Both the position numbers and the translations under genes were made by a program. DNA of 64,000 nucleotides from an uncultured Bacteroidales bacterium (GTDB lineage: Bacteria > Bacteroidota > Bacteroidia > Bacteroidales > UBA11471), in assembly GCA_947593515.1 (NCBI GenBank), contig CANQDQ010000010.1, positions 73 to 64,072 of the forward strand. The letters run 5' to 3'. The notes under the pieces are model-generated. The model ran no database searches, was not told the DNA's origin, and worked only from the letters and a program-made list of their open reading frames with translations. Shown here one piece after another: positions 33,063 to 53,913 of the stretch (its first letter is position 1; each line of letters opens with the position of its first letter).

Positions 33063-34286
33063 ATGATAGCGCCCTTTGGAAAACCCCTCTATGTCATGGC
33101 AAAGCCGGTCGGTGCGCGGTGCAACCTCGCCTGCGAATATTGCTATTATCTGGAAAAAGAGAAACTTTCCGGAAACCCTGCCGCCTGCCGACCGATGAGC
33201 GACGAGCTGCTGGAACAATTCACCCGCGACTACATTCAAAGCCAGACGATGCAAGAGGTGCTCTTTACTTGGCACGGCGGCGAACCGCTGCTGCGCCCGC
33301 TGTCGTTCTATCGAAAGGCGCTCGACCTGCAACGCCGCTATGCCGGCGGACGCCACATCGACAACGCCATACAGACCAACGGCACGCTGCTTACCGACGA
33401 GTGGTGCCGCTTCCTGCACGATAACGGCTGGCTCGTAGGCATATCCATCGACGGACCCCGAGAGCTGCACGACCGCTATCGCCGCAGCCGCGGCGGCGAC
33501 CCGTCGTGGGAGAGCGTCATGCGGGGTATCGACCTGCTCCAAAAGCACAATGTGGAATGGAACGCCATGGCTACGGTCAATGCCTGCAATGCCGACCACC
33601 CGTTGGAATTTTACCGGTTCTTCCGCGACATCGGCGCGCACTACCTGCAATTTACCCCCGTCGTCGAGCGGCTTCTCCCCCACGACGACGGTCGCACGCT
33701 CGCCGCTCCCGCCGACACGGACGCTCCGCTTGCCGGCTACTCCGTCAGTCCGCAGCAATGGGGCGATTTCCTTTGCCGAATTTTCGACGAATGGGTGGTC
33801 AGCGACGTAGGGCAAATTTTCGTTCAACTGTTCGACGCCACGTTAGCCAACTGGTGCGGCATGCCGCCCGGCGTCTGCTCCATGTCGGAAGACTGCGGTC
33901 ATGCGGCAGTCATGGAAGCCAACGGCGACGTTTACAGCTGCGACCATTTCGTTTTTCCCGAATACCGGTTGGGCAACATCAGGCAGCACACGTTGGTCGA
34001 AATGCTCTACGGGCAGCGTCAGCAGCAGTTCGGTCGGCAGAAACGCCACGCCCTGCCCCGTCAGTGCCGCGAGTGCAGCTACCTGTTCGCCTGCCACGGC
34101 GAATGCCCCAAAAACCGTTTTGCCACCGCTGCCGACGGCGAACCCGGGCTCAACTACCTTTGCTCCGGTTATCACGCTTTCTTCCGCCACGCCGAGCCTT
34201 GCATGGAGTATATGCGCCGCGAGATAACTGCCGGTCGTCCCCCTGCCAACGTCATGCCGGTCGCCCGCCGGCTTCTTGCACAATAA
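33063..34286 (+). CDS. Anaerobic sulfatase-maturating enzyme (radical SAM / SPASM)
   Basis: 407 aa. CNLACEYCYY radical-SAM cluster and C-terminal SPASM cysteines (CSMSEDCGH..., CDHF, CRECSYLFACHGECPK). Confidence 0.9.
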   Translation: MIAPFGKPLYVMAKPVGARCNLACEYCYYLEKEKLSGNPAACRPMSDELLEQFTRDYIQSQTMQEVLFTWHGGEPLLRPLSFYRKALDLQRRYAGGRHIDNAIQTNGTLLTDEWCRFLHDNGWLVGISIDGPRELHDRYRRSRGGDPSWESVMRGIDLLQKHNVEWNAMATVNACNADHPLEFYRFFRDIGAHYLQFTPVVERLLPHDDGRTLAAPADTDAPLAGYSVSPQQWGDFLCRIFDEWVVSDVGQIFVQLFDATLANWCGMPPGVCSMSEDCGHAAVMEANGDVYSCDHFVFPEYRLGNIRQHTLVEMLYGQRQQQFGRQKRHALPRQCRECSYLFACHGECPKNRFATAADGEPGLNYLCSGYHAFFRHAEPCMEYMRREITAGRPPANVMPVARRLLAQ

Positions 34287-34287
34287 A
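34242..34287 (+). repeat. Repeat X1 (3' end of the maturase CDS plus stop)
   Basis: 46 nt, 43/46 identical to X2 at 35577-35622. Confidence 0.85.
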
Positions 34288-34298
34288 AAATAAAAAAT

Positions 34299-34306
34299 TA
34301 CTTTTG
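34299..34306 (+). promoter_or_regulatory. -7 promoter box TACTTTTG
   Basis: Consensus match 18 nt upstream of ATG 34324. Confidence 0.4.
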
Positions 34307-34323
34307 CCTCGGAAAAAGGAGTT

Positions 34324-34920
34324 ATGAAAATTGAAGAATTTACCGAAAAAGATATTCGTGAGGCTTCACACCTTGCCTATCCTGTGTGGGGAGTGAACTA
34401 CATTGCCGATGGTCAAGATGAGAAATTTGGGTTGCTAATGTGCGAGTATATCATTCGCTATGGTTGGTATGGTGCACCTTATGCCTTTAAAATTACTGAT
34501 AAAGGCAAGATGGCAGGCTGCATACTTGCGGGCAATATCAAGCAGGATAACGGTTACAACGAGTGGATTGATGAACTAATGCCCACATTCAACGACAAAC
34601 AGCGCGAGGCGGCGTTAGCTCTACGCGATTATTTTGGCAATACCTCGCCAAAAGTCTATCGCTATATGCAGGCAGACAAGGATTTATATTTGTCGTTCTT
34701 TCTATCTGCCGTGCAGGGTTGCGGTAAGCAGTTGCTTGCCGAGGTTGTAGCAGGGGCAAAGAGAGATGGTTACGAGAAACTCTACCTCTGGACAGACTCT
34801 TCGTGCAACCACTCCTACTATGCCCGCCACGGCTTTGAGAAAGTCGCCGAATTCAAGTCGGACGAGTGGAAGACCAACTCCAACAACTATTTGACTTATA
34901 TCTATCGCAAAAGTTTATAA
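34324..34920 (+). CDS. GNAT-family N-acetyltransferase
   Basis: 198 aa. Acetyl-CoA motif A-like VQGCGKQLLAEV and a C-terminal ...YYARHGFEKV. AT-rich. Confidence 0.7.
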   Translation: MKIEEFTEKDIREASHLAYPVWGVNYIADGQDEKFGLLMCEYIIRYGWYGAPYAFKITDKGKMAGCILAGNIKQDNGYNEWIDELMPTFNDKQREAALALRDYFGNTSPKVYRYMQADKDLYLSFFLSAVQGCGKQLLAEVVAGAKRDGYEKLYLWTDSSCNHSYYARHGFEKVAEFKSDEWKTNSNNYLTYIYRKSL

Positions 34921-35017
34921 TGGAGAGAGACGATATCGACTTTCGGCAAAAGCGCGTTTCGATGTTATTTCGAAAAGAGATAAAGTAATACTAAAATAAT
35001 TTTAATCAAATAGATAT

Positions 35018-35521
35018 ATGGCAACGATAATAAAGAGTGAAGTCAAAGATTTCCAACCCAATCCAAACAAGATAGATGGGTTTAGGCTACTGACGGATAG
35101 GACAAGAGAGGCTATGGGAATTACCCCCAAATGGCTCAATTTCGATGTACGACAGCTCAATCCTCGTGAGTGTAATGCTGCTTATCACTTTCATCGTTAT
35201 GCTGAGGAATTATTTATTATCCAACAAGGTGCAGCCAAATTACGTACTCCCCAAGGCGTAGAAATAGTAAAATCAGGCGATATTATATTTTTCGAAGCAG
35301 GAGAAACGGGCGCTCATCAACTTTACAATCATACAGAAGAACCGTGTATATTCCTTGACATACGCACTTATATCGGGCATGATATATGCGAATATCCTGA
35401 TTCTAACAATATTATCATCGTTCCAAATGGTGAAACCTTCAAACGCGATGAACAACACAACTATTTTGAGGGAGAAGAAGGGATTTACGATATCTGGAAT
35501 AAATTAAACAAGTCTGAATAA
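35018..35521 (+). CDS. Cupin domain protein
   Basis: 167 aa. Two cupin motifs (YHFHRYAEELFIIQQG and GDIIFFEAGETGAHQLYN). Confidence 0.7.
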   Translation: MATIIKSEVKDFQPNPNKIDGFRLLTDRTREAMGITPKWLNFDVRQLNPRECNAAYHFHRYAEELFIIQQGAAKLRTPQGVEIVKSGDIIFFEAGETGAHQLYNHTEEPCIFLDIRTYIGHDICEYPDSNNIIIVPNGETFKRDEQHNYFEGEEGIYDIWNKLNKSE

Positions 35522-35530
35522 ATAAAAGAT

Positions 35531-35577
35531 GCTTGCATTTTTATATCATTATCGGCGAAAAATTTTCGTCCGATGAC
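35531..35577 (+). repeat. Repeat Y1
   Basis: 47 nt, 44/47 identical to Y2 at 35953-35999. It abuts X2 with no spacer. Confidence 0.85.
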
Positions 35578-35622
35578 CTGCCAATGTCATGCCGGTAGCC
35601 CGCCGGATTCTTGCACAATAAA
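35577..35622 (+). repeat. Repeat X2 (non-coding copy of the maturase 3' end)
   Basis: 46 nt, 43/46 identical to X1. No maturase-like sequence lies upstream of it. Confidence 0.85.
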
Positions 35623-35629
35623 TTGATAA

Positions 35630-35896
35630 TCAATTATAAAACAATAACAGCAACAGAACTATTATTTGAGTCAGCAGTATTAAGGGAATGCCATATTTGA
35701 ATTTTTTGTGCAGCGTTTTATGATGCCACACTTTCATTCCTAACCAAGCCCCCACACTGCCGCCCAGCGCAGCCATCAGCAACAGCGCAGCTTCCGAGAT
35801 GCGCCGTGCGGATTTCTTCGCTTTCCACTTGTCGATGCCGTACACGAAAAAAACGACCCCGTTGATGACGACAAGGCAGATAAAGAGATAATACAT
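35630..35896 (-). CDS. DUF1294 domain membrane protein
   Basis: 88 aa. YGIDKWKAKKSARRISE..LL..A..GGS.GAW.GM....HKT.HKKF pattern. Confidence 0.75.
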   Translation of the reverse strand: MYYLFICLVVINGVVFFVYGIDKWKAKKSARRISEAALLLMAALGGSVGAWLGMKVWHHKTLHKKFKYGIPLILLTQIIVLLLLLFYN

Positions 35897-35928
35897 ATAC
35901 TTCGATTAAACAAGAATCATCGGAAAAG

Positions 35929-35961
35929 AATGCAAGCGCCTCCGAAAAAGGCGCTTGCATT
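35929..35961 (-). terminator. Terminator hairpin downstream of the LbH nucleotidyltransferase-like gene
   Basis: Perfect 12-bp stem AATGCAAGCGCC-N9-GGCGCTTGCATT. Its right arm is the start of repeat Y2. Confidence 0.65.
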
Positions 35962-35999
35962 TTTATATCCTTATCGGCGAAAAATTTTCGCCCGACGAC
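35953..35999 (+). repeat. Repeat Y2
   Basis: 47 nt, 44/47 identical to Y1. Confidence 0.85.
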
Positions 36000-36011
36000 A
36001 CGCCGACATTT

Positions 36012-41251: not shown

Positions 41252-41376
41252 CCCCGCCCGCAAAACCCGAATCGGCATTACCTCACCGCAAAATTTTACC
41301 GATTATTTACCCCTCTGCTTATTTCTCTGCACTCACATAAATCATACAAACACTTGCTTTTACCTACAAAAGATAT

Positions 41377-41384
41377 TATATTTG
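41377..41384 (+). promoter_or_regulatory. -7 promoter box TATATTTG
   Basis: Exact consensus 24 nt upstream of ATG 41408. Confidence 0.45.
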
Positions 41385-41407
41385 CATCGGTAAGAAATAA
41401 AAAACTG

Positions 41408-41971
41408 ATGCGAGAGTCTGATATACAAAAGATTAAAGCAGTCCTACTGTACATCTTGGACAAAATGCCGAAAGAACGATGCGATGTGTATCATATCGTA
41501 AAGACGGCATTCTATGCCCAGAAATATCATTTTGTCAGATATGCTTTACCGTTGTTCAAAGATGACATTACGGCATTGCAGTTCGGACCGGTTCCCTCTC
41601 TTATATACAACGCCCTAAAAGTTGCACGAGGACAGCAAGATGCGTATCACTTTTGCGATAAACACACCCTCGACACCCTCTCATCGGCCATAAATTTCAA
41701 AGACGAGTTCTTCTCTGCCAAAGAAAAAGCGGATATGGAAAGCCTGTCGAAATCCAACATAGAGTGCCTCGATGAAGCAATCTTACAGGTAAAAGATATG
41801 GCGTTTTCCGAATTAATGGAAGCCACCCACGATAAAGAATGGTATAGAGCGTATCACTCCTCAAACAACCATACGATGGATAATATAAACATCGCGAGGG
41901 AAAACGGAGCGGACGAATTGACGATCTCCTATCTTTCCGAAAGTCTTGAAATCGATCAAATGATTAATTGA
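41408..41971 (+). CDS. Panacea (DUF4065, SocA/GepA-like) antitoxin-domain protein
   Basis: ATG 41408 (the track start at 41354 is TTG). Pattern IQKIKAVLLYILDK......YHIVKTAFYAQKYHFVRYALPLF.DDITALQFGPVPSLIYNALK matches the DUF4065 core. Only 1 nt separates it from the downstream ORF. Confidence 0.75.
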   Translation: MRESDIQKIKAVLLYILDKMPKERCDVYHIVKTAFYAQKYHFVRYALPLFKDDITALQFGPVPSLIYNALKVARGQQDAYHFCDKHTLDTLSSAINFKDEFFSAKEKADMESLSKSNIECLDEAILQVKDMAFSELMEATHDKEWYRAYHSSNNHTMDNINIARENGADELTISYLSESLEIDQMIN

Positions 41972-41972
41972 T

Positions 41973-42413
41973 ATGTTATTAGGAGACCTTGAAAGATTAA
42001 AAGACTTTCAAATCCGTATCGGAAGTGTTTTCCGAATGACATTTTATCCCCAAGATAGAGTTACCCCGAAAGGACAAGGCGCACAATCGCGAATAAAATA
42101 TTTTGTAATTGTCGGTATCGATGCAAACGGTGATTATATCGGAGCGTCGTTGATTAACACAAACGTCAATATCAACTTTGCCGCAAAAATTGCGCCATAC
42201 CAATTATGTATATATCCGGATAAATATGAATTTTTAGACGGTAAATACCGGTATGTGGACGGATATGCCATTAAACAGATAAAAAAAGAGCGTATCCAAA
42301 ACGAGGCTGAATATATCGGGATTCTTGAAGATGACGATATTGAGAAAATCCGTGAATTATTGAGAAAATCTCCGGCTATGGATACACGCACATTGCGCCA
42401 ATTCGGCATATAG
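41973..42413 (+). CDS. Candidate cognate toxin (possibly a divergent MazF/PemK-like fold)
   Basis: 146 aa, translationally coupled to the Panacea gene. By eye the block order resembles MazF (G.V....F.P......R.KYFVIVG......IGASLINTN......L..........RYVDGYAIKQIKKERI......G.L...DIEKIRELL). Confidence 0.45.
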   Translation: MLLGDLERLKDFQIRIGSVFRMTFYPQDRVTPKGQGAQSRIKYFVIVGIDANGDYIGASLINTNVNINFAAKIAPYQLCIYPDKYEFLDGKYRYVDGYAIKQIKKERIQNEAEYIGILEDDDIEKIRELLRKSPAMDTRTLRQFGI

Positions 42414-42523
42414 TTTCCCACCAATCGGTCGTTATTCCCCTGCGACGCGTAAAGCGCAAAATCGAATTTACTTTTTTGTAAAAGATTTATCCACCTATTG
42501 CTGTTCTGTAAAAATAAAAACAG

Positions 42524-42531
42524 TAAATTTG
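42524..42531 (+). promoter_or_regulatory. -7 promoter box TAAATTTG
   Basis: Exact consensus 62 nt upstream of ATG 42594. Confidence 0.4.
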
Positions 42532-42593
42532 TATGGCACTGGTTTATTTTAATACTACATTGATTTACAAATTATTATCCAACCTATTTTACC

Positions 42594-43439
42594 ATGAAAC
42601 TATACGACAATCTTCAAGAATCCATAAAAGTGGTGAACACTTCGGCACAAAACCTCATGTTGGGCATAAATGCCCTCGATAATGTTTTGAAAGGAATCGA
42701 ACCGGGCAGCGTCGTTGTGATAGAAGGACGGGCGGACAACGGTCGGGCGGAGATGTTCAACACCCTTATCTGCAACATTGCCATTAAACAATCGCGTCCG
42801 TCGCTTATATTGAATATCTCCACGTTGGAGTCCGAATTTTACAACCGGCTCTTTTCGGCGCTTACCAATACGGACATCGACATCGTGCGAAAATCGCCTG
42901 CCGATATTTGGGCTAAACATTCCGACAAACTGCAAAAAACGAACTGCGATATAGAATTTCTCCGGTTTGCCCCTATCAAAGACATCGCCGCGTGCATAAG
43001 GGAATATGCCGCCGCAGGAGTAGAAATCGTATTTATCGACCTTTTCCAAGCCATCGACGACGACGGAGATAATCGTTACTGCATATCGGAGCGATGCTCA
43101 AAATTGTTGTATTCCCTCGCAAAAGAATATAAAATCACAATCATCTTGACAAGCAACATTTATCCGACAGAAGAACGGATAGGCGGCATACGGGAAAAAC
43201 AACCGTCACTCGCCGATTTAGCCCCGTTCGGACAGCTCGACGAGTTCAGCGATGTCGTCATATCGCTGTTTGTTCCGGAAATATATAACATCAAAGAAGA
43301 TTTGCAAGGCAACGATTTGACAGAGCAGGCTTTCGTTTCCATCATAAAAAATACTCTCAATCAAAAACTACCTTCCGTGCGCCTCTATTATGATGCCCAA
43401 CATTTCAAAATGGAAGGCACACAACTATGGAATGCGTAA
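42594..43439 (+). CDS. Orphan DnaB C-terminal-like RecA-fold protein with degenerate catalytic motifs
   Basis: 281 aa, collinear with DnaB_C. GSVVVIEGRADNGRAEMF stands for the Walker A GxxxxGKT, VFIDLFQA for IDYLQL, TSNIY for SQLNR, and DLAPFGQLDEFSDVV for DLRESGSIEQDADLI. There is no N-terminal DnaB domain. Confidence 0.7.
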   Translation: MKLYDNLQESIKVVNTSAQNLMLGINALDNVLKGIEPGSVVVIEGRADNGRAEMFNTLICNIAIKQSRPSLILNISTLESEFYNRLFSALTNTDIDIVRKSPADIWAKHSDKLQKTNCDIEFLRFAPIKDIAACIREYAAAGVEIVFIDLFQAIDDDGDNRYCISERCSKLLYSLAKEYKITIILTSNIYPTEERIGGIREKQPSLADLAPFGQLDEFSDVVISLFVPEIYNIKEDLQGNDLTEQAFVSIIKNTLNQKLPSVRLYYDAQHFKMEGTQLWNA

Positions 43440-43477
43440 AAATCCATTGGGAATAAACGGCGATAGTCGTTTTTCAC

Positions 43478-43485
43478 TATATTTG
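43478..43485 (+). promoter_or_regulatory. -7 promoter box TATATTTG
   Basis: Exact consensus 126 nt upstream of ATG 43612. It is the only such box before the three-gene block 43612-47383. Confidence 0.4.
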
Positions 43486-43611
43486 CAATTGGAAAGAGGC
43501 AACCCATTCCAAGACATATCGAAAAAAGAGCGTTATGCTTATCTTGTAATTGAAAAAGTCAAAATTTTAGAAAGGGACTCTGGTAATCGAAGAATATAAA
43601 ATTCATTGCGT

Positions 43612-44103
43612 ATGAATACGATTAACAAAACATTTCTTGTTAGCTGTTGCCTTTTAATGCTTGTAAGTTGTAGAGCTCTTCAACAGCCTGTTATTGTCAG
43701 GAACGCTCCTATTGAGACTTTTAAGTACGCATATATTTCTCCCACAAAAGAACTTACTTCAAGTAGTAGTGGAATATATTACGAAATATATGAAACTTCG
43801 ACAACAAAAAGTGTCAATCCGAGTGATGTTATATCTGGAGTATTGATAAAAGAAGGATTTATCATATTACCCGAACTTAAATCCGAGCTATCTCATGAAA
43901 CTCTAATCGTTAATTATGGAGAGAGTGGTCGGCGCAATATCGGTTTGTTTTCCTATGCAACAGAAGTAACGATACAATTCATATCTGCCGAAACAAACCA
44001 AATGATATGCACTTGTACTGCCGAAGGACAAGGCGAAACAGAAGCAGATAGTATTCGCCAAGCCATTAGACGAGCATTGTCAAGCCTGTTCGAGAACAAA
44101 TAA
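43612..44103 (+). CDS. Small lipoprotein, function unknown
   Basis: ATG 43612 (the track start is TTG). Signal and lipobox MNTINKTFLVSCCLLMLVSC. 163 aa. AT-rich. Confidence 0.6.
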   Translation: MNTINKTFLVSCCLLMLVSCRALQQPVIVRNAPIETFKYAYISPTKELTSSSSGIYYEIYETSTTKSVNPSDVISGVLIKEGFIILPELKSELSHETLIVNYGESGRRNIGLFSYATEVTIQFISAETNQMICTCTAEGQGETEADSIRQAIRRALSSLFENK

Positions 44104-44136
44104 AACCGTTTGCATCAAATAATTAAACAGGAGATT

Positions 44137-44733
44137 ATGAAAAATTTTATTATCACATTTGCATTGATGACAATTGCATTAGCCGCATTTGCACAAAGCA
44201 ATTCAGAACATCTCACTTTCAAAGGTGTACCTATTGATGGAACTCTCAATGAATATGTTGCAAAAATGGAAAATGCAGGATTTAGTCATATTGACACAAA
44301 AGACGGCGTTGCCATTTTGAGTGGAGAATTTGCTGGCTATAAAGATTGTATGATTGGTGTAATGACTTTCCAAAAATGTGATCTCGTCCACGAAATTAGA
44401 ATCCTTTTCCCAAGACAAAACACGTGGAAAGGCTTAGATTTTGATTATAATAGATTAAAATCAATGCTTTCAAAAAAATATGGGAAGCCTGATGAGTGTG
44501 TCGAAAAATTTGTTAATACCCCAAGATATCTCAACATGAATGATGAGAATGACAAAATGCGTGAAGTTGAAAATAACCACTGCATATATTATTCTGTATT
44601 CAAAATTAAAAACGGCAATATTTCACTATTTATCGAATATGACGGTGTATTCGGTGGTTGTCGTGTTAAATTATGGTATTCGGACAAAATCAATTCAAAG
44701 GCTTTTGAAGAAGCGGCAATAGATGATTTATAA
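44137..44733 (+). CDS. Secreted protein, function unknown (small-exported-protein family common in Bacteroidales)
   Basis: ATG 44137 (the track start is TTG). Signal peptide MKNFIITFALMTIALAAFAQ, then the LTFKGVPIDGTLNEYV...KYGKP... pattern. Confidence 0.6.
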   Translation: MKNFIITFALMTIALAAFAQSNSEHLTFKGVPIDGTLNEYVAKMENAGFSHIDTKDGVAILSGEFAGYKDCMIGVMTFQKCDLVHEIRILFPRQNTWKGLDFDYNRLKSMLSKKYGKPDECVEKFVNTPRYLNMNDENDKMREVENNHCIYYSVFKIKNGNISLFIEYDGVFGGCRVKLWYSDKINSKAFEEAAIDDL

Positions 44734-44758
44734 TTATTTTATTGTAAATAATTGATAT

Positions 44759-47383
44759 ATGAATCTTTTGCTTGCCTTAATTGTATGTGCTGTTGCTATT
44801 TATATTGCAATTGTAGCTACAATCCGAAACCGTCTTAAAGTTAAGGCAAACGAGTTATCGGAACAAATAAAAAGGATTCCTTCATACAGCGATAAATTCA
44901 ATTATGAGCAAACAGAAAAGAGATTGTCTGCTCTTAATGAAAAAGGATTCATCGATATTTCCACAGATCTAAACAACAATTTTTCCGGCAAGATAATCTC
45001 TGCAACGCAAAAAAAGGATTTTATTAATCACTATACGCCATATTTTCAAGAAGTCTATTCTCTTTTTGAAAAACTTGAAACTTTTAAGATAACACCCTCT
45101 GAAACTATATCCAAATTCATCAATGATTTTGAGGCTATCAATCGACTTGTAAAACAGCATAATGACAGTGTCATCGCCTTTTTGCTCGATACGCATAAAG
45201 ACTTTTTCGACCATTGTCTAAAATATCCATTAGACAAGCAACAAAGACGTTCAATTATTTCAGAAGAAGACAATTGCTTGGTGGTCAGCAGTGCCGGTAG
45301 CGGAAAGACATCGTCTATCGTTGGGAAAGTCAAATATCTAACTGAAATTAAAGGTGTTGCGCCTCATAGGATTTTACTCATTAGTTACACGAATAAAGCA
45401 GCCGCCGAACTCACAGAGAGAATAGCGACTGAGGGGTTGAAAGGTTATACATTTCATAAATTAGCTATTGATATTATCGGAAAAGCAACCGGTACCAAAC
45501 CATCTATTTGCGATAATACAGATGCTTTATTCATAGATATTTATCATAATCTATTAAAAAAATCGGCTTTCAAAAAAAGCGTTATAGAATATTTCAAGAA
45601 TTACCAAACAAGCAAAACCGATTGGGAGCAGCGCAAAGATGAAAGAAGAGAAATGTTGTCGGAACAAAAAAACGTACAACTAAAAGCCTTATTTCCCGAT
45701 ATGGACGGTAAAGCCATATATGTGAGAAGCGTGCAAGAGTATAAGATATGCTTCATATTATCATCACTTGGGATAAAATTCAGATATGAAGAACCATACG
45801 AATATCCGTTAGCTGATGAAATGCATTCACAATATCGTCCCGATTTTTCAATATATTTTGAGCAGGAAGGAGTAACAAAGCGTATCTACTTAGAACACTT
45901 TGGCGTTGATGAGCACGGTCTCGTTCCCGCATGGTTTGCAAAGGATAAAAATATCACATACGAAGAAGCCAATCAAAAATATAATGATGGCATAACTTGG
46001 AAGAAAGTAGCTCACAAAAAATTTGGCACCCAACTTCTGGTAACTTCGAGTGCCGATTTTCTCTGTTCTGATTCCGATATAAGCGATAAACTCCGAAAAT
46101 TATTAGATAATGCAGGAGTGCCTATTCACGAAAAAACAAATGAAGAATTATATGATTTGGTTTTACCCGAAGACAGCAAACAAGAAAAAGCATTTATTCG
46201 GCTTGTAGCTACTTTCGTTACATTAATAAAATCAAGCTGCAAATCCGTTATAGAAGTTTTAAGAAAAGCAGAAACTGTTCATGATGAACGAAGTGTTTTT
46301 ATTATAATGAATATCTTTCAACCCGTTTATGACTGTTATATACAAGCATTAAAGATACGTAAGCAAATAGATTTCACCGATGCGATTCTTCAAGCTACCG
46401 ATATATGCCGTACTTTGCACCCTGTCGAGTATGACTATATCATTGTAGATGAATTTCAAGATATATCGATTGACCGGTACAACTTTTTGAAAGTATTGAG
46501 AGAAGGAAATCCTCCTACAAAATTATATTGTGTCGGCGATGATTGGCAATCCATATATCGCTTTTCCGGAAGCGATATGTCTCTTTTTAATCAATTTCCC
46601 GAATACTTCGGTGCAACAGAAATAAATAAGATTGAAACTACATACCGATTCGGAGAGCCTTTGGTATCTCTATCTTCCCATTTTATCCAACGCAATAAAG
46701 CCCAAATACAAAAGAATATCCGCTCTTTTAGCCCTGAGATGAAAACCGAATTGGAGTTTTATCCTTATGTCCGAAGTGATTATTGCAACACAATAGGAGA
46801 ATTAGTATCTTCTATCCCACCGAATAAATCCATATTTCTATTAGGTCGTTATTCTTTTGACGATTATTACCTCTCCTTTATGTATCAATCCATTAAAGAG
46901 GGAGATAAATTCTACTATATGATAGGAGGACGAAAAATAGAATTCTTGACCGTACACAAATCAAAAGGTCTCGAAGCAGATTATGTAATACTTTTGCAAT
47001 GCAATAAAGATATATACGGTTTTCCGTCCCTTATAAGCGACGACCCTGTACTTAATTACGTACTCACTAAAAGCGACCAGTTCCCATACGGAGAAGAACG
47101 AAGATTGTTTTATGTTGCCCTCACAAGAGCAAAGATAAAAACAATAGTGCTTTACGACAGCCGTTTTCCGTCTGTCTTTGTCGATGAGTTTTTACACCCC
47201 GAAAAAACGTCGGAAGAAAGTTATGCAAAACACAAAAATGCCAATAAGCGATGGACTCGCAATGAAGACAAATTCTTATTAGAACTATACAAAGAGGGCA
47301 AGAGTATCAAATATATTGCATCGAAAATGGGGCGTAGTCAAACATCTATCGTGATGCATTTGGGAAAATTAAATGCCGATTAA
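44759..47383 (+). CDS. Membrane-anchored SF1 helicase (UvrD / helicase IV-like) with PD-(D/E)xK-like insert and C-terminal Myb/SANT-like HTH
   Basis: 874 aa. TM helix aa 3-23. Walker A SSAGSGKTSS (aa 177-186), motif II IIVDEFQD (aa 561-568), motif III CVGDDWQSIYRFSG, motif V/VI TVHKSKGLEADYVIL and RRLFYVALTRAK. Insert aa ~318-385 reads SVQEYKI..L..LGIKFRYEEPY....YRPDFSIYF....RIYLEHFG. C-terminus reads KRWTRNEDKFLLELYKEGKSIKYIASKMGRSQTSIVMHLGKL. Confidence 0.85.
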   Translation: MNLLLALIVCAVAIYIAIVATIRNRLKVKANELSEQIKRIPSYSDKFNYEQTEKRLSALNEKGFIDISTDLNNNFSGKIISATQKKDFINHYTPYFQEVYSLFEKLETFKITPSETISKFINDFEAINRLVKQHNDSVIAFLLDTHKDFFDHCLKYPLDKQQRRSIISEEDNCLVVSSAGSGKTSSIVGKVKYLTEIKGVAPHRILLISYTNKAAAELTERIATEGLKGYTFHKLAIDIIGKATGTKPSICDNTDALFIDIYHNLLKKSAFKKSVIEYFKNYQTSKTDWEQRKDERREMLSEQKNVQLKALFPDMDGKAIYVRSVQEYKICFILSSLGIKFRYEEPYEYPLADEMHSQYRPDFSIYFEQEGVTKRIYLEHFGVDEHGLVPAWFAKDKNITYEEANQKYNDGITWKKVAHKKFGTQLLVTSSADFLCSDSDISDKLRKLLDNAGVPIHEKTNEELYDLVLPEDSKQEKAFIRLVATFVTLIKSSCKSVIEVLRKAETVHDERSVFIIMNIFQPVYDCYIQALKIRKQIDFTDAILQATDICRTLHPVEYDYIIVDEFQDISIDRYNFLKVLREGNPPTKLYCVGDDWQSIYRFSGSDMSLFNQFPEYFGATEINKIETTYRFGEPLVSLSSHFIQRNKAQIQKNIRSFSPEMKTELEFYPYVRSDYCNTIGELVSSIPPNKSIFLLGRYSFDDYYLSFMYQSIKEGDKFYYMIGGRKIEFLTVHKSKGLEADYVILLQCNKDIYGFPSLISDDPVLNYVLTKSDQFPYGEERRLFYVALTRAKIKTIVLYDSRFPSVFVDEFLHPEKTSEESYAKHKNANKRWTRNEDKFLLELYKEGKSIKYIASKMGRSQTSIVMHLGKLNAD

Positions 47384-47385
47384 AT

Positions 47386-47416
47386 GAAAAAGCGGCGGAG
47401 GGGTCCGTCGCTTTTT
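47386..47416. terminator. Bidirectional terminator between the helicase and the GH57 gene
   Basis: AAAAAGCGGCGG-aggggt-CCGTCGCTTTTT, flanked by A5 and T5. Confidence 0.65.
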
Positions 47417-47435
47417 CGTTTCTATTTCGCAAGGA

Positions 47436-50186: not shown

Positions 50187-52136
50187 TTATATGTGATCGT
50201 ATTTTTTCAACAAACTCAAAACGCGCAATATCTCGCCCACGTTGGCAGCGAAGCTGATGGCGCCGCGACCGGTGAAAGGCGGGTTGCCGTCGAACAGCTC
50301 CGAAATGGAGCCGATACAGTTGTTCGACATCTCCTCCTCGAAGCCGATAAGCATACGCTCGAGGAACGAAACGCCACTGAGCCCGAACAGCCGGAGATAG
50401 GCATCGGCATAAGCGCCCATGAGCCACGGACGTGCCGGCCCCTGATAATAGGCATACGCCCGCTGCTCCTCGTTGCCCAGATACGTCGGCGAATAGCCGT
50501 GGCTTTTCGGGCTGAGGGTGCGGATTCCTTTCGGGGTGAGCAGTTCGCGCGTAACGACATCGAGCGCTTTTTTGCGCTCCGACTTGTCGAGCGGAGAATA
50601 ATCGAGCGAAAGGGCGAACAGCATATTCGGACGGACGCTCCAATCGGCATAATTCGTATCGACGTAGTCGAACAGATAGCCGTAATCGTTGAGGAACATC
50701 TCTTTGAACGAAACGGCAGTCGTATCGGCAAGCGTCGTCAGCCGGTCGGCAATGGCAGCCGTTTCGGGCGTGATAAACACGTGTTCGACAGCGAAGCGCA
50801 GCGCGTTATACCAAAGAGCGTTAAACTCTACCAAATAGCCGCTGCGCGGAATAATCGGGCGTTTCTCCCAGTTTTCGGCATCGATCCACGACACGACGGT
50901 TTCGCGGCCGTTGGTGTAGAGCAAGCCGTTGTCGTGCAGGAACAAGTTGGGTATTTTCGATTTGGAGATGCTGTCGATGATGAGCGAAATCAATTCGCCG
51001 TACCGTTTGCGACACTCCTCTATCGAGACCATCTTGGCATACTGCTGCAATGCCCATACGACCCACAGCAGCACATCGGGCTTGTCTATTTCCTTGATTA
51101 CCGCATCGCGCTCGCCTTTGAGAATCCATTTTTCCAGCGCCTTCGATGCCGTAGCCATCATTTCGTGGAACATCGGCACGTCATCGACCGCCAGCGTACA
51201 GCCCGGCAGGGCGATGAACATATCGCGGGCGCGGACGCCGAACCACGGATAACCCGCCAGCAGATAATTGTCTTTGTCGCGTTTGTAATAGAATTGCTGC
51301 GCCGAGTTTTTCAAGCAGTTGTAGAAGCTCGTGCGGTAAGTGCGCACACTCAACTCCTTGTTGTAAAGAGCCGTCAGCGAGCGCGATTTCACTTCGCTCA
51401 CACCTGCCGAGAAAATAATGCTTTCGCCTTTCTTGATAGGCACCTCGAAATAACCCGGCACGTAGAGGTCTTCCTTGTAATCATATCCCCGTTCTTGGTC
51501 TTTGACATATTCGATGCCTTTGTACCAGTTGGGCTGGAACACGAATTCCGCCGCTTTGTTGAACTGCATATACAGCGTCGGATAGCCGGCATACAGGCAG
51601 CAGCTGATACCGTTTTCCACCACATCGTAGTGGCGGTTGAGGTTTCCGTTTTCCACGCACAGGGAGTTGGCGTTGCGGAAAGCGAGGAACGGGCGGAATT
51701 GCAGCTTCGTTTCGGAGTGGGCGTCGAGCAGGGTATATCGGATAAGTATGCGGTTTTCGTGCGAAATGAAAACTTTTTCCTTGCTCAAAATCACACCACC
51801 CACCCGATAGGTACACTTCGGCACCGACTCGCAGGTAAACTCCCGAATGTACTTATGACCATTCGGGCTGAAACAATCGCCTTGGTATTTGTGCAACCCC
51901 AAATTAAACGGTGCGCCATGCTGTATCACCGTTTCGTCGAGCGACGAAAGCAAGACATGATTTTCATCGTCCATTTCGGGAATGGGTATTACCAACAGAC
52001 CGTGTTGTTTACGGGTATTGCACCCCACAATCGTCGTACAATGGTAAGCACCCGACTTGTTGGTACGCAACATCTCTTTCGGCAGAGATTGTTCGAGATT
52101 TATCATCAAATCTTTATCAAACTTCAAGTAGCTCAT
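50187..52136 (-). CDS. Glycogen debranching enzyme (GDE_N plus amylo-alpha-1,6-glucosidase domain)
   Basis: 649 aa. The N-terminal GDE_N pattern (...EMLRTNKSGAYHCTTIVGCNTRKQHGLLV) and a C-terminal (alpha/alpha)6 domain. Confidence 0.9.
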   Translation of the reverse strand: MSYLKFDKDLMINLEQSLPKEMLRTNKSGAYHCTTIVGCNTRKQHGLLVIPIPEMDDENHVLLSSLDETVIQHGAPFNLGLHKYQGDCFSPNGHKYIREFTCESVPKCTYRVGGVILSKEKVFISHENRILIRYTLLDAHSETKLQFRPFLAFRNANSLCVENGNLNRHYDVVENGISCCLYAGYPTLYMQFNKAAEFVFQPNWYKGIEYVKDQERGYDYKEDLYVPGYFEVPIKKGESIIFSAGVSEVKSRSLTALYNKELSVRTYRTSFYNCLKNSAQQFYYKRDKDNYLLAGYPWFGVRARDMFIALPGCTLAVDDVPMFHEMMATASKALEKWILKGERDAVIKEIDKPDVLLWVVWALQQYAKMVSIEECRKRYGELISLIIDSISKSKIPNLFLHDNGLLYTNGRETVVSWIDAENWEKRPIIPRSGYLVEFNALWYNALRFAVEHVFITPETAAIADRLTTLADTTAVSFKEMFLNDYGYLFDYVDTNYADWSVRPNMLFALSLDYSPLDKSERKKALDVVTRELLTPKGIRTLSPKSHGYSPTYLGNEEQRAYAYYQGPARPWLMGAYADAYLRLFGLSGVSFLERMLIGFEEEMSNNCIGSISELFDGNPPFTGRGAISFAANVGEILRVLSLLKKYDHI

Positions 52137-52340
52137 ATCTTTATCAATATTTTTTGAGGTCTTTGTCGTTTCTTAATTTTTAACTGCCGAATATAGAAAT
52201 TTTCTTGTAACATTCCAAATTTTTCGGCAAAAATTTCTTACAAAACCTTGTTTTTTCAAAAAACGTCGCCTTTTTCCGACATTTTTCCAGAAAACAGCCA
52301 GCGGATAATTTTTTTGAAAGTCATATCCCCAATTATAAAA

Positions 52341-52372
52341 CAAAAACGCACGCAACAAGTTGCGTGCGTTTA
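52341..52372 (-). terminator. Terminator after the MarC-family gene
   Basis: ACGCACGCA-ACAAGT-TGCGTGCGT, a perfect 9-bp stem flanked by A and T runs. Confidence 0.6.
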
Positions 52373-52391
52373 TAATATGCTTATTTTCAAA

Positions 52392-52994
52392 TTATTGGAA
52401 TTTTCTCAACAATTCCGAGATGTTGCTCACGAACATACGCACGGAAATCGCCAGCAGAATGATGCCGAAAAATTTGCGCAGCACATACACGAACGCCTTG
52501 CCACAAATGCGCTCCACTACGGCGGAATAACGCAACACGAAATAGACGATAATGATGTTCAGCACCAAAGCGATAAGAATATTCGGCAGGCTGTACAGCG
52601 CCCGCAGCGAAAGCAATGCCGTGAACGACCCCGCCCCCGCAATCAACGGGAAAACGATGGGCACCAGCGTCGCCGAGCCTTCGGGTCCGTCGTTCCGGAA
52701 AATCTGTATGCCGAAAATCATTTCGATAGCCATCACGAAAATAACCAATGCACCGGCTACGGCAAACGACGAAATGTCGACTTGGAACAACTGCAAAATA
52801 AAATCGCCGACAAATAAAAACGCAATAAACGTCGCCAATGAAAACAATGCGGCTTTCGGCGCCGAAATTTTCATGCCGCGATCTTGGTAATCGATAAACA
52901 CGGGCAGAAGTCCGGTAACATCTATTACCGCGAACAGCACGACGAACGCGCTGATTGTTTCCTGCAAATCGAAATAAAAATCCATTCCGTTCAT
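52392..52994 (-). CDS. MarC-family (UPF0056) integral membrane protein
   Basis: Start at ATG 52994 (MNGMDFYFDLQETISAFVVLFAVIDVTG). About 200 aa with six TM segments. Confidence 0.8.
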   Translation of the reverse strand: MNGMDFYFDLQETISAFVVLFAVIDVTGLLPVFIDYQDRGMKISAPKAALFSLATFIAFLFVGDFILQLFQVDISSFAVAGALVIFVMAIEMIFGIQIFRNDGPEGSATLVPIVFPLIAGAGSFTALLSLRALYSLPNILIALVLNIIIVYFVLRYSAVVERICGKAFVYVLRKFFGIILLAISVRMFVSNISELLRKFQ

Positions 52995-53195
52995 ATCATC
53001 AGGTTTAAGGTTAAATTGTACGAACAAAGATAGTAAAAAAACGAAAAAGGAAAACACAAAAAACGTTATCGGAACAAATTTTTCACTGTTCGTTTTTCCG
53101 TTATACATTAACAAAAAAAGAGCCGGAAATAGATTTTTTCAAAAACAATTAAATTGATTTTATGTTTATTGTTTAGAGATTTGGATAATTCTTCT

Positions 53196-53203
53196 TATTT
53201 TTG
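53196..53203 (+). promoter_or_regulatory. -7 promoter box TATTTTTG
   Basis: Consensus match 21 nt upstream of ATG 53224. Confidence 0.4.
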
Positions 53204-53223
53204 AGTTGTTAAAAACAAACGAT

Positions 53224-53913
53224 ATGGACAGTATGTACGATATTTTATTACAGCTTCCTCTTTTTCAGGGAGTAAGCAGAGAAAAAATGTCCGGAATCAT
53301 CGAGAAAACACGTTTCCATTTCTTAAAATATCCGGACAATGAAATCATCGTCCGGCGGGGCGAGGAGTGTACGCACCTGAAATTCATCGTATCGGGGAGC
53401 GTCCGTTCCGAAATGGTGAACAAAAGCGGAAAGATACGGGTATCGGAAACGCTGCACGCTCCCGACGTCTTGTTTCCCAACCACTTTTTCGGCAAAAACA
53501 CCTCTTACCCGAGCGAAATTCGGGCAAAAGGCGACTGCGGCATCATGCAACTCGACAAACAGTCGTTCATCGGACTTTTGCAACAGGAGTCCATTATCGT
53601 CATCAACCTGCTGAACATTCTTTCCCGCCGGTCGCAGAAAAGCATCGAATCGTTTCTCTCCCTGTCGTCGGGCAACATCAAGGAGCGGCTGGCGTTCTGG
53701 ATTCTGAGTTTTACCCAGCGCAACGCCACCGATATACAGATACTCTGCAAACAAAAAGACTTATACACGTTCTTCGGCGTACAGCGCTCCATTTTCATGA
53801 ACGCGCTCACCGAATTGCAGGACGACGGCATCATCGCCTTTTCGGCACAGGGCATCACCCTGCTCGACCGACAAAAACTGCACGATATTCTCGCCGGCGA
53901 AATCGACGAATAG
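53224..53913 (+). CDS. Crp/Fnr-family transcriptional regulator
   Basis: ATG 53224 (the track start is TTG). cNMP-binding-like beta-roll (LFQGVS...GEECTHLKFIVSGSVR) and a C-terminal HTH (QKDLYTFFGVQRSIFMNALTELQDDGII). Confidence 0.85.
   Translation: MDSMYDILLQLPLFQGVSREKMSGIIEKTRFHFLKYPDNEIIVRRGEECTHLKFIVSGSVRSEMVNKSGKIRVSETLHAPDVLFPNHFFGKNTSYPSEIRAKGDCGIMQLDKQSFIGLLQQESIIVINLLNILSRRSQKSIESFLSLSSGNIKERLAFWILSFTQRNATDIQILCKQKDLYTFFGVQRSIFMNALTELQDDGIIAFSAQGITLLDRQKLHDILAGEIDE

Follow-up and report, generated by a model that had tools for sequence, protein, structure and literature searches.

We analysed a stretch of 64,000 nucleotides (nt) from an uncultured Bacteroidales bacterium (contig CANQDQ010000010.1; hereafter the window) and describe one of its genes, which encodes a protein of 281 amino acids (aa) related to the C-terminal domain (CTD) of the replicative helicase DnaB. 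Very probably, the protein is a pseudo-ATPase that has been maintained as part of mobile cargo. Its ancestry lies in the stand-alone DnaB_C proteins that are common in Bacteroidota, and it is carried in the accessory (conflict or establishment) gene pool of Bacteroidales mobile elements. The statement as a whole, that it is a maintained, catalytically dead DnaB CTD paralogue in mobile cargo which acts by binding or co-assembly, falls in our judgement a little short of an even bet; taken by itself, the proposed mechanism of mimicking or binding DnaB would be possible rather than probable. Throughout, loci are given by L numbers and proteins by P numbers.

A stand-alone DnaB C-terminal domain

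The gene and its first structural element are located in the window as follows:

42594-43439, plus strand: coding sequence of a stand-alone ATPase-degenerate DnaB CTD paralogue, 281 aa (open reading frame (ORF), Pfam, DnaB alignment, Foldseek)
42594-42635, plus strand: N-terminal helix, aa 1-14, MKLYDNLQESIKVV (MKLYDNLQESI in the window), aligned just before the DnaB RecA core

The only Pfam domain found in the protein was DnaB_C (PF03796; E-value 1.1e-22, 81.1 bits with a cut-off of 27), aligned over profile positions 4-252 of 255. In a phmmer search of PDB sequences, residues 22-269 aligned to residues 208-456 of the 471 residues of E. coli DnaB, and both alignments confirmed the proposal of an earlier note on this DNA that the ORF is collinear with the RecA-like CTD of DnaB. 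The Pfam families divDNAB (PF20307, 13.9 bits) and KaiC-type ATPase (PF06745, 25.1 bits) stayed under their gathering scores of 26 and 26.6, respectively; the similarity to both was weak and covered the half from the P-loop to Walker B, and DnaB_C was clearly the best match. The NCBIfam DnaB models matched by their C-terminal halves only: the equivalog model TIGR00665 reached 64 bits at a cut-off of 385, and all PRK models scored far under their cut-offs.

An AlphaFold2 model computed from a five-sequence alignment was poor (pLDDT 57.6, pTM 0.63). It was enough to recover the DnaB fold, as all 50 best matches of this low-confidence model in a Foldseek search of the PDB were CTDs of DnaB or G40P, and too poor for an analysis of pocket and interface. 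Our statements on the nucleotide pocket and the subunit interface therefore rest on sequence alone. Compared with the CTD of replicative DnaB (6bbm/6kza, 2r6a_A/4esv), the protein has the same fold and is collinear from the linker region to the C terminus.

The DnaB N-terminal domain, which forms the primase-binding collar, was not found in the 281-aa protein. Its start corresponds to DnaB residue ~161-170, with position 4 of the family profile aligned to residue 168 of 2vye_A/2r6a_A and position 7 to residue 161 of 4nmn_A. The first ~20 residues are a helix conserved in the family (family counterpart MAKQIYxxMxDFF), in which M1 and Y4 are invariant and which was placed at residues 3-10 in the AlphaFold2 model. 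Located at DnaB ~161-180, it probably represents the linker-helix region of DnaB, and hence the linker would be missing only in part. The earlier note had regarded both the N-terminal domain and the linker as lacking; this stands for the domain, whereas part of the linker is apparently kept as the N-terminal helix.

State of the catalytic motifs

We aligned the 281-aa protein with its 153 top matches and with the family members from the loci, using a canonical 506-aa Bacteroidales DnaB from L014 as reference. The functional roles given to the motifs are those established for DnaB, T7 gp4 and RecA. The alignment placed the motif equivalents as follows:

42726-42749, plus strand: degenerate P-loop GRADNGRA (aa 45-52) for GxxxxGKT, Lys to Arg and Thr to Ala
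42819-42821, plus strand: Ser76 where DnaB has its catalytic Glu (SLEM)
43032-43055, plus strand: FIDLFQAI, the Walker B equivalent (IDLFQA, aa 148-153)
43149-43163, plus strand: TSNIY (aa 186-190) for motif H3 SQLNR, sensor Gln to Asn188 and Arg to Tyr
43215-43253, plus strand: DLAPFGQLDEFSD (aa 208-220) for motif H4 DLRESGxIEQDAD
43347-43361, plus strand: KNTLN (aa 252-256) for AK(N/H)RxG, with Thr254 at the arginine-finger position

The seven diagnostic columns read R-A-S-D-N-A-T in the 281-aa protein; six of the seven are lost. In comparison to DnaB, the N-terminal domain is absent and replacements affect both Walker A residues (Lys and Thr), the catalytic Glu, the Gln of H3, the Arg of H4 and the arginine finger, whereas the Walker B Asp-x-x-Gln, the Lys-Asn of AKNRxG and the hydrophobic core have been kept. 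The peptides quoted in the earlier note were all found at the residues and nucleotides given for them. Its statement that every catalytic motif is substituted has to be narrowed: six of the seven diagnostic positions are indeed gone, but Walker B Asp149 (and Gln152) is retained, and the lost catalytic Glu (Ser76) did not appear in its list. It was also right about the change of SQLNR to TSNIY, but assigned the arginine finger to this region, whereas the finger lies in the AKxRxG segment (KNTLN).

The replacements extend through the family. The P-loop has the consensus G[RQ]xx[DN][GS]R[DEA], the column of the catalytic Glu holds S, A or G, and GxLDE(F/Y)SD forms the family signature at H4, where the Arg of DLRESG (the single-stranded DNA (ssDNA) loop) is Ala210 in the 281-aa protein. 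The arginine-finger column contains Arg in 108 of 164 aligned sequences; most family members have T, N or K there and only P0002-4 have Arg. Lys252 and Asn253 of the KNTLN segment are conserved, and the changes in Walker B are confined to hydrophobic positions. Judged by these motifs, the 281-aa protein is predicted not to hydrolyse ATP and would be unable to work as a translocating helicase.

We consider it very unlikely that the protein is still an NTPase or an NTP-binding switch that uses the P-loop Arg, the Walker B Asp and Glu79. Such a role would fit the invariance in the family of Arg51, Asp149, Gln152 and Glu79, the last of which lies three residues past the usual position of the catalytic Glu, as well as the kept glycine framework of the P-loop. 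Exchange of the Walker A Lys for Arg normally abolishes hydrolysis, however, and the six diagnostic residues that are gone include the Thr for Mg coordination as well as the sensor Gln and the arginine finger. The acidic residues that have become fixed within the P-loop (DGR[DE]) also count against it.

Family size, new motifs and phylogenetic place

A word-index search returned one cluster with 98% identity and three 313-aa proteins at 36-38% identity. The family is very rare: an exhaustive HMMER search of 1.84 billion representatives yielded only seven clusters at E<1e-30, below which a continuum of ordinary DnaB and DnaB_C-only proteins followed. All family members share the same replacements, which form new conserved motifs: the P-loop consensus given above, PSLILN(L/I), (V/F)FID(L/K/S)FQ(A/M/S)I, G(R/Q)LDE(F/Y)SD and LKN. 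In a neighbour-joining tree, which is rough but agrees with the hidden Markov model (HMM) scores, a second degenerate clade (P0009, P0010, P0025, P0033, P0038 and P0113) comes out as the sister group of the family, and the clade that contains the gene of the window (the window clade) is the deepest branch of its family. Both degenerate clades are nested within the short (280-370 aa) stand-alone DnaB_C proteins of the Bacteroidota type.

Loss of catalytic residues is graded and concentrated in stand-alone proteins. All seven positions were canonical in 59 of 73 full-length DnaB matches versus 23 of 74 short proteins, and the non-canonical short DnaB_C proteins miss between one and six of them. 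The family is the extreme end of this graded series of catalytic loss among stand-alone DnaB_C proteins. Intact stand-alone proteins of Bacteroidota (~280-370 aa; P0013, P0016, P0020) are nearest in the tree, share the architecture of linker-region helix plus CTD and occur in similar gene arrays. They keep GKT, SLE, IDYLQL, SQLNR, DLRDSG and AKxRxG, and many of them have a D-x-PF tail; by contrast, the family has lost five to six of the seven diagnostic residues, has no PF tail and has motifs of its own.

Three further observations concern the termini of these proteins. On many DnaB and stand-alone DnaB_C proteins of Bacteroidota (P0013-P0090), the C terminus is a D-x-(I/L/V)-PF tail that resembles the tip of SSB at its C-terminal end, and the DUF3127 proteins of the same arrays, which have an oligonucleotide-binding (OB) fold, also end in DLPF (L016:8516-8917); the degenerate family is without such a tail. 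At L013:1253-2662 and L016:9479-10888 (P0006 type) the longest ORF is 469 aa, with an N-terminal extension of ~158 aa that has no Pfam match. Here the family start MEKQ(V/I)Y is internal, and the extension may be either a mis-called start or a genuine extra domain. Finally, the ~55 C-terminal residues of a 313-aa DnaB_C-like protein (L001:10001-10942) resemble the C terminus of the 192-aa protein encoded next downstream (L001:11034-11612; 29% identity, E 1e-5), which suggests a common small C-terminal module.

Maintenance of the degenerate gene

The window clade comprises 32 member sequences, and its 14 distinct near-full-length variants were compared. These differ by substitutions and whole-codon indels only, so that the frame is kept, and every altered motif is invariant among them. 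The altered motifs are also kept in relatives at 33-38% identity (~65% divergence), and the ORF is intact in every assembly compared. Ratios of nonsynonymous to synonymous substitution rates (dN/dS, Nei-Gojobori) were 0.22-0.45 for four assemblies of the window clade and 0.17 for two genes of its sister clade (113 substitutions, dS 0.43). For comparison, they were 0.15-0.20 for the neighbouring helicase and 0.01-0.04 for a housekeeping AMP-ligase. Based on these values, we conclude that the DnaB_C-like gene is under purifying selection, at the level usual for accessory genes.

A decaying remnant of a mobile-element replicative helicase, in other words a pseudogene in progress, is highly improbable in view of these data. 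The missing N-terminal domain would suit such a remnant, as would the surrounding island, which resembles one end of an integrative mobilizable element (IME) after decay. An ORF that is intact in all assemblies and accumulates whole-codon indels, a dN/dS below 0.5 and substituted motifs that are conserved across ~65% divergence all argue for maintenance. The earlier note had favoured a maintained pseudo-enzyme over a decaying fragment, which the 14 in-frame variants, the conserved altered motifs and the dN/dS of 0.17-0.45 bear out. Its further suggestion of a remnant of a mobile-element replication module holds insofar as the gene belongs to the Bacteroidales mobile-element cargo pool, but the gene is a conserved accessory gene, not a relic.

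Neighbourhoods of the relatives

The neighbours of the relatives look like cassettes of one accessory gene pool and not like a fixed operon, because their identity and order are shuffled between loci. In the window clade the gene is orphan, whereas in the sister clade (310-469 aa) it is usually flanked by HAD_SAK_2 and Metallophos genes; the idea that homologues might always be orphan has therefore to be dropped. The modal order in the sister clade is HAD_SAK_2, DnaB_C-like, Metallophos. HAD_SAK_2 is present in 11 loci, in several lineages as the immediate upstream neighbour at a distance of 36-40 nt, and Metallophos in 9 loci, immediately downstream in 6. Other genes found repeatedly in the vicinity are FGase-like, DUF218, DUF3127 (the OB-fold protein whose DLPF tail is SSB-like), DUF4846 and retropepsin-like genes. 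The sister-clade genes sit in long one-direction arrays together with WYL, AAA_15/21, UvrD or NERD-UvrD, HisKin-conflict and iREC genes. Sir2 occurs in L014 and L020, and L001 starts with a VapE/DUF5906 gene, like IMEs.

The array of L017 contains two ADP-ribosylglycohydrolases, NT5C, NUDIX-NrtR, radical SAM and DUF1848 genes. Over its 20 kb in one direction (L017:1-20747) it also holds three HAD_SAK_2, a Metallophos and an FGase-like gene; it is dense in functions for the processing of NAD/ADP-ribose and nucleotides, and resembles detoxification or counter-defence cargo. At L014:9857-13451, a canonical 506-aa dnaB has a family member 1 kb upstream of it and a Sir2-family gene after it.

Loci of the second degenerate clade draw on similar genes. 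A PIF1 helicase gene lies directly upstream in L023, which also has retropepsin-like and Kinase-PolyVal genes. L024 contains WYL, UvrD-like, reverse transcriptase (RT) and other genes, then DnaB_C, HD, others, DUF3127, a second and partly degenerate DnaB_C, and DUF218. The order in L033-35 is DnaB_C, DUF3127, HD; in L036 the gene lies beside ArdC-N/MPTase polyvalent proteins, a marker of a conjugative element; and in L039-40 a retropepsin-like gene is located 7 nt upstream. Proteins of this retropepsin-like aspartyl-protease type are encoded one to three genes away from degenerate DnaB_C genes of both clades, in some cases right next to them (L006-L008, L014, L023, L033, L039-L040).

The RTs in the sister-clade arrays score as type XI retron RTs without protease (E 1e-100). 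Across the two degenerate clades, RTs that score as type XI retron RTs were found in L024, L016 and L003, at distances of 1.1 kb, 4 kb and 8 kb from the DnaB_C-like gene, respectively. DnaB_C accessory ORFs beside protease-less type XI-like retron RTs have been described for Bacteroidota and Bacillota in a preprint, which does not treat the catalytic motifs of these ORFs; in its lineage TXI_noncan_h the DnaB_C ORF is usually directly beside the RT (offset +/-1) (bioRxiv 10.64898/2026.05.14.725207). Compared by description, these retrons and our family share stand-alone DnaB_C proteins in defence contexts of gut Bacteroidota/Bacillota, whereas here the RT is 1-8 kb off in the relatives and there is none in the 64-kb window. 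Among our matches, P0087 (795 aa) is an RT fused to a DnaB_C domain with intact motifs, a physical link between RT and DnaB_C. The preprint was the only relevant work that we found in the literature on DnaB_C with defence, HAD_SAK_2, divDNAB, DUF3127 or inactive DnaB-like proteins.

The main alternative to our reading starts from these neighbours: the protein could be a subunit of a multi-gene conflict module, without function alone, that was orphaned in the window by partner loss. Candidate partners are HAD_SAK_2 upstream, Metallophos or HD downstream, the SSB-like DUF3127, the retropepsin-like protein and/or a protease-less type XI-like retron RT. We regard this as unlikely, although it has several observations on its side, namely the adjacency of HAD_SAK_2 (11 loci) and Metallophos (9 loci) in the sister clade, the recurrence of DUF3127, HD and retropepsin-like genes by both degenerate clades, the scores of the RTs in L003 and L024 as type XI retron RTs, the accessory ORFs of the preprint (bioRxiv 10.64898/2026.05.14.725207) and the fusion P0087. 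The window clade, however, is intact in at least 14 variants and at least 4 assemblies without these partners in 64 kb. Moreover, the partners differ in identity and order between loci, and in the loci of the family itself the RT is distant, not adjacent.

Across the family loci, no loader, primase or phage gene was consistently adjacent. We rejected a phage origin: there is profile similarity to the phage DnaB-like helicases PHROG 19/243, yet no relative was found on the viral contigs of IMG/VR, and annotated phages and plasmids contained only generic DnaB at ≤27% identity. A known defence system was rejected as well, based on PADLOC-DB 2.0, in which 0 families matched the DnaB_C-like protein at E<=1 and the HAD, Metallophos, FGase and C10 partners were also without a match.

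These negatives bear on the view that the protein is a defence decoy that benefits the host. Such a decoy would mimic the DnaB CTD and titrate or sense helicase loaders or inhibitors of phages or plasmids, or poison invading hexamers; we think this quite improbable. The fold and putative interface elements are kept, the gene lies in a defence-type island beside a putative toxin-antitoxin pair and a superfamily 1 (SF1) helicase, and relatives adjoin WYL, AAA_15, UvrD, RT and HisKin-conflict genes. Yet PADLOC gave no match, relatives were absent from the viral contigs, and no effector gene was linked. Several relatives lie in conjugative-element regions with anti-restriction-type polyvalent proteins, which fits a benefit to the element at least equally well.

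Proposed mode of action

Our preferred reading remains a maintained, catalytically dead DnaB CTD paralogue that acts by binding or co-assembly. As the 281-aa protein presumably cannot couple NTP hydrolysis to translocation, its action would have to be stoichiometric and rest on binding. Acidic residues that have become fixed anew in the P-loop suggest a nucleotide pocket that is closed and not in use. Because the retained fold, the N-terminal helix and the Walker B region build the subunit interface of DnaB, the most likely mode would be oligomerisation or co-assembly with a DnaB-type helicase, with its loaders or partners, or with ssDNA. Co-assembly of this kind would modulate helicase loading in the conflict between host, mobile element and phage. 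The beneficiary may be the host, the element or neither, and the role may be defence, counter-defence or establishment of the element.

Several points weigh against this proposal. The shuffled neighbours leave no single conserved partner, and the copy in the window has none of the partners of the sister clade. The adjoining helicase occurs in thousands of genomes without the DnaB_C-like gene. In addition, the structural model has the low confidence given above, and the Walker A Arg together with the retained Walker B Asp could still permit nucleotide binding.

A broader proposal, which we consider speculative and unlikely in its full extent, is that the two degenerate clades form a class, so far undescribed, of ATPase-dead linker-plus-CTD DnaB mimics. 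Bacteroidales mobile elements or their hosts would use them to cap or poison DnaB-type rings or to sequester loaders or SSB-like partners. If this were true, DnaB mimics would control whose DNA gains a replicative helicase in conjugation, mobilisation or phage infection, and they would parallel, at the level of replication, mimic proteins of the PsiB or Ocr type. They would also represent a new kind of interaction between mobile element, phage and host replisome in an important gut phylum, and offer a handle on the poorly understood loading of helicases in Bacteroidota. Should the proteins instead belong as subunits to phosphoesterase or retron-like modules, new conflict systems could be defined with their help.

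RecA-fold pseudo-enzymes are known in principle. Csm2-Psy3 of the Shu complex (Rad51 paralogues) has a RecA fold without Walker function, and both proteins are structural regulators of an active RecA-family assembly. The likeness is an analogy of principle and not homology, since Csm2-Psy3 are eukaryotic recombination factors. It was likewise known that stand-alone DnaB_C proteins are common in Bacteroidota and that DnaB_C ORFs occur with retron-like RTs. What is new is that one clade is both conserved and fully degenerate and has motifs of its own, that a graded series leads up to it, and that it behaves as a cargo cassette; we found no description of it in the searchable literature. The stand-alone DnaB_C proteins of Bacteroidota, which range from intact to fully degenerate, show in nature how an enzyme grades into a pseudo-enzyme, with new motifs fixed under purifying selection in the most extreme members. 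Members of the degenerate family (cluster of P0005) are named ‘replicative DNA helicase’ in JGI/IMG; this automatic annotation is misleading, because the state of the motifs excludes such an activity, and it appears functionally wrong.

The AT-rich island in the window

The DnaB_C-like gene lies in an island between two ordinary chromosomal genes, proB and a GH57 gene, with the following parts:

41267-47420, no strand: mosaic AT-rich island, GC 0.33-0.45, between proB and the GH57 gene
41267-42440, plus strand: separately inserted cassette with a SocA/Panacea antitoxin gene and a 146-aa ORF, absent from L011
42441-43494, no strand: DnaB_C-like cassette, promoter and gene (blastn against L011 and L004)
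42524-42531, plus strand: -7 promoter box of the Bacteroidota type, TAAATTTG, 63 nt before the ATG
43495-44004, plus strand: inserted segment with most of a 165-aa lipoprotein-like ORF (43606-44103), absent from L011 and L004
44110-44733, plus strand: signal-peptide protein of 207 aa; in IMEs, the 192-aa gene before the helicase has 32% identity to it
44759-47383, plus strand: UvrD/helicase IV-like SF1 helicase, 874 aa, with an N-terminal transmembrane segment and a C-terminal helix-turn-helix

The GC content is 0.585 in the proB flank, 0.50 in the GH57 flank, 0.449 in the DnaB_C-like gene and 0.356 in the helicase gene. The closest genomes are two metagenome-assembled genomes of uncultured Bacteroidales from rabbit gut (96-98% identity). 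DNA homology to a Bacteroidales IME extends from ~43482 through the helicase gene to 47357, and the 874-aa helicase is the last cargo gene of this widespread element. The order in IMEs of the B. uniformis type is DUF5906/VapE-like, Toprim primase, Mob_Pre relaxase, two small signal-peptide genes, helicase and a variable chromosomal flank, and no DnaB_C-like gene was found in these IME loci. Homologues of the helicase number in the thousands, and across Bacteroides, Coprobacter, Butyricimonas and Prevotellaceae it has 82-84% identity. Only the cargo end of the IME is present in the 64-kb window, which contains no homologue of the sister-clade partners, of an RT or of the IME backbone.

The sequence TAnnTTTG is the -7 consensus of Bacteroides promoters. 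It has 63 matches in the window (35.5 expected), and on the plus strand of the island it occurs at 41377, 42524 and 43478. The island has three intergenic regions, and as a single box falls into each of them, we suggest three transcription units. The box at 42524-42531 (TAAATTTG) agrees with the earlier assignment of a box of its own to the DnaB_C-like gene. From these comparisons the DnaB_C-like gene is an independent, promoter-bearing cassette in a mosaic island beside IME-derived cargo.

We rejected the helicase as an obligate partner of the DnaB_C-like gene, because it has thousands of homologues and the IME loci that bear it are without a DnaB_C-like gene; in L025-L032 its homologues either belong to IME cargo or stand by themselves, and none is accompanied by a DnaB_C-like gene, and the IME homology begins only past the stop codon of that gene. 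The pair upstream was rejected too, as it is absent from L011, an otherwise collinear locus of a metagenome-assembled genome in which the DnaB_C-like gene directly follows proB, and the 146-aa ORF shows no similarity to HAD_SAK_2, whose equivalent it might have been. Rfam detected no non-coding RNA or retron RNA in the island, only a terminator-like hairpin after the helicase gene, and no convincing att-like or cassette repeats flank the island.

The SocA/Panacea-domain ORF (41354/41408-41971; Pfam E 1e-16) and the 146-aa ORF (41973-42413), which starts 1 nt after it and has no family match, look like a PanA antitoxin with a novel toxin (41354-42413). A perfect 14-nt inverted repeat (GGATTCTTGAAGAT / ATCTTCAAGAATCC) occupies 42319-42332, at the 3' end of the 146-aa ORF, and 42610-42623, in codons 6-10 of the DnaB_C-like gene; with ~0.1 such pairs expected by chance in the island, it is possibly meaningless. 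Other AT-rich stretches of the window, at 34000-36000 and 51500-53500 (GC 0.40-0.44), show no link to the DnaB_C-like gene and carry GNAT-like, cupin, DUF1294 and MarC-family genes.

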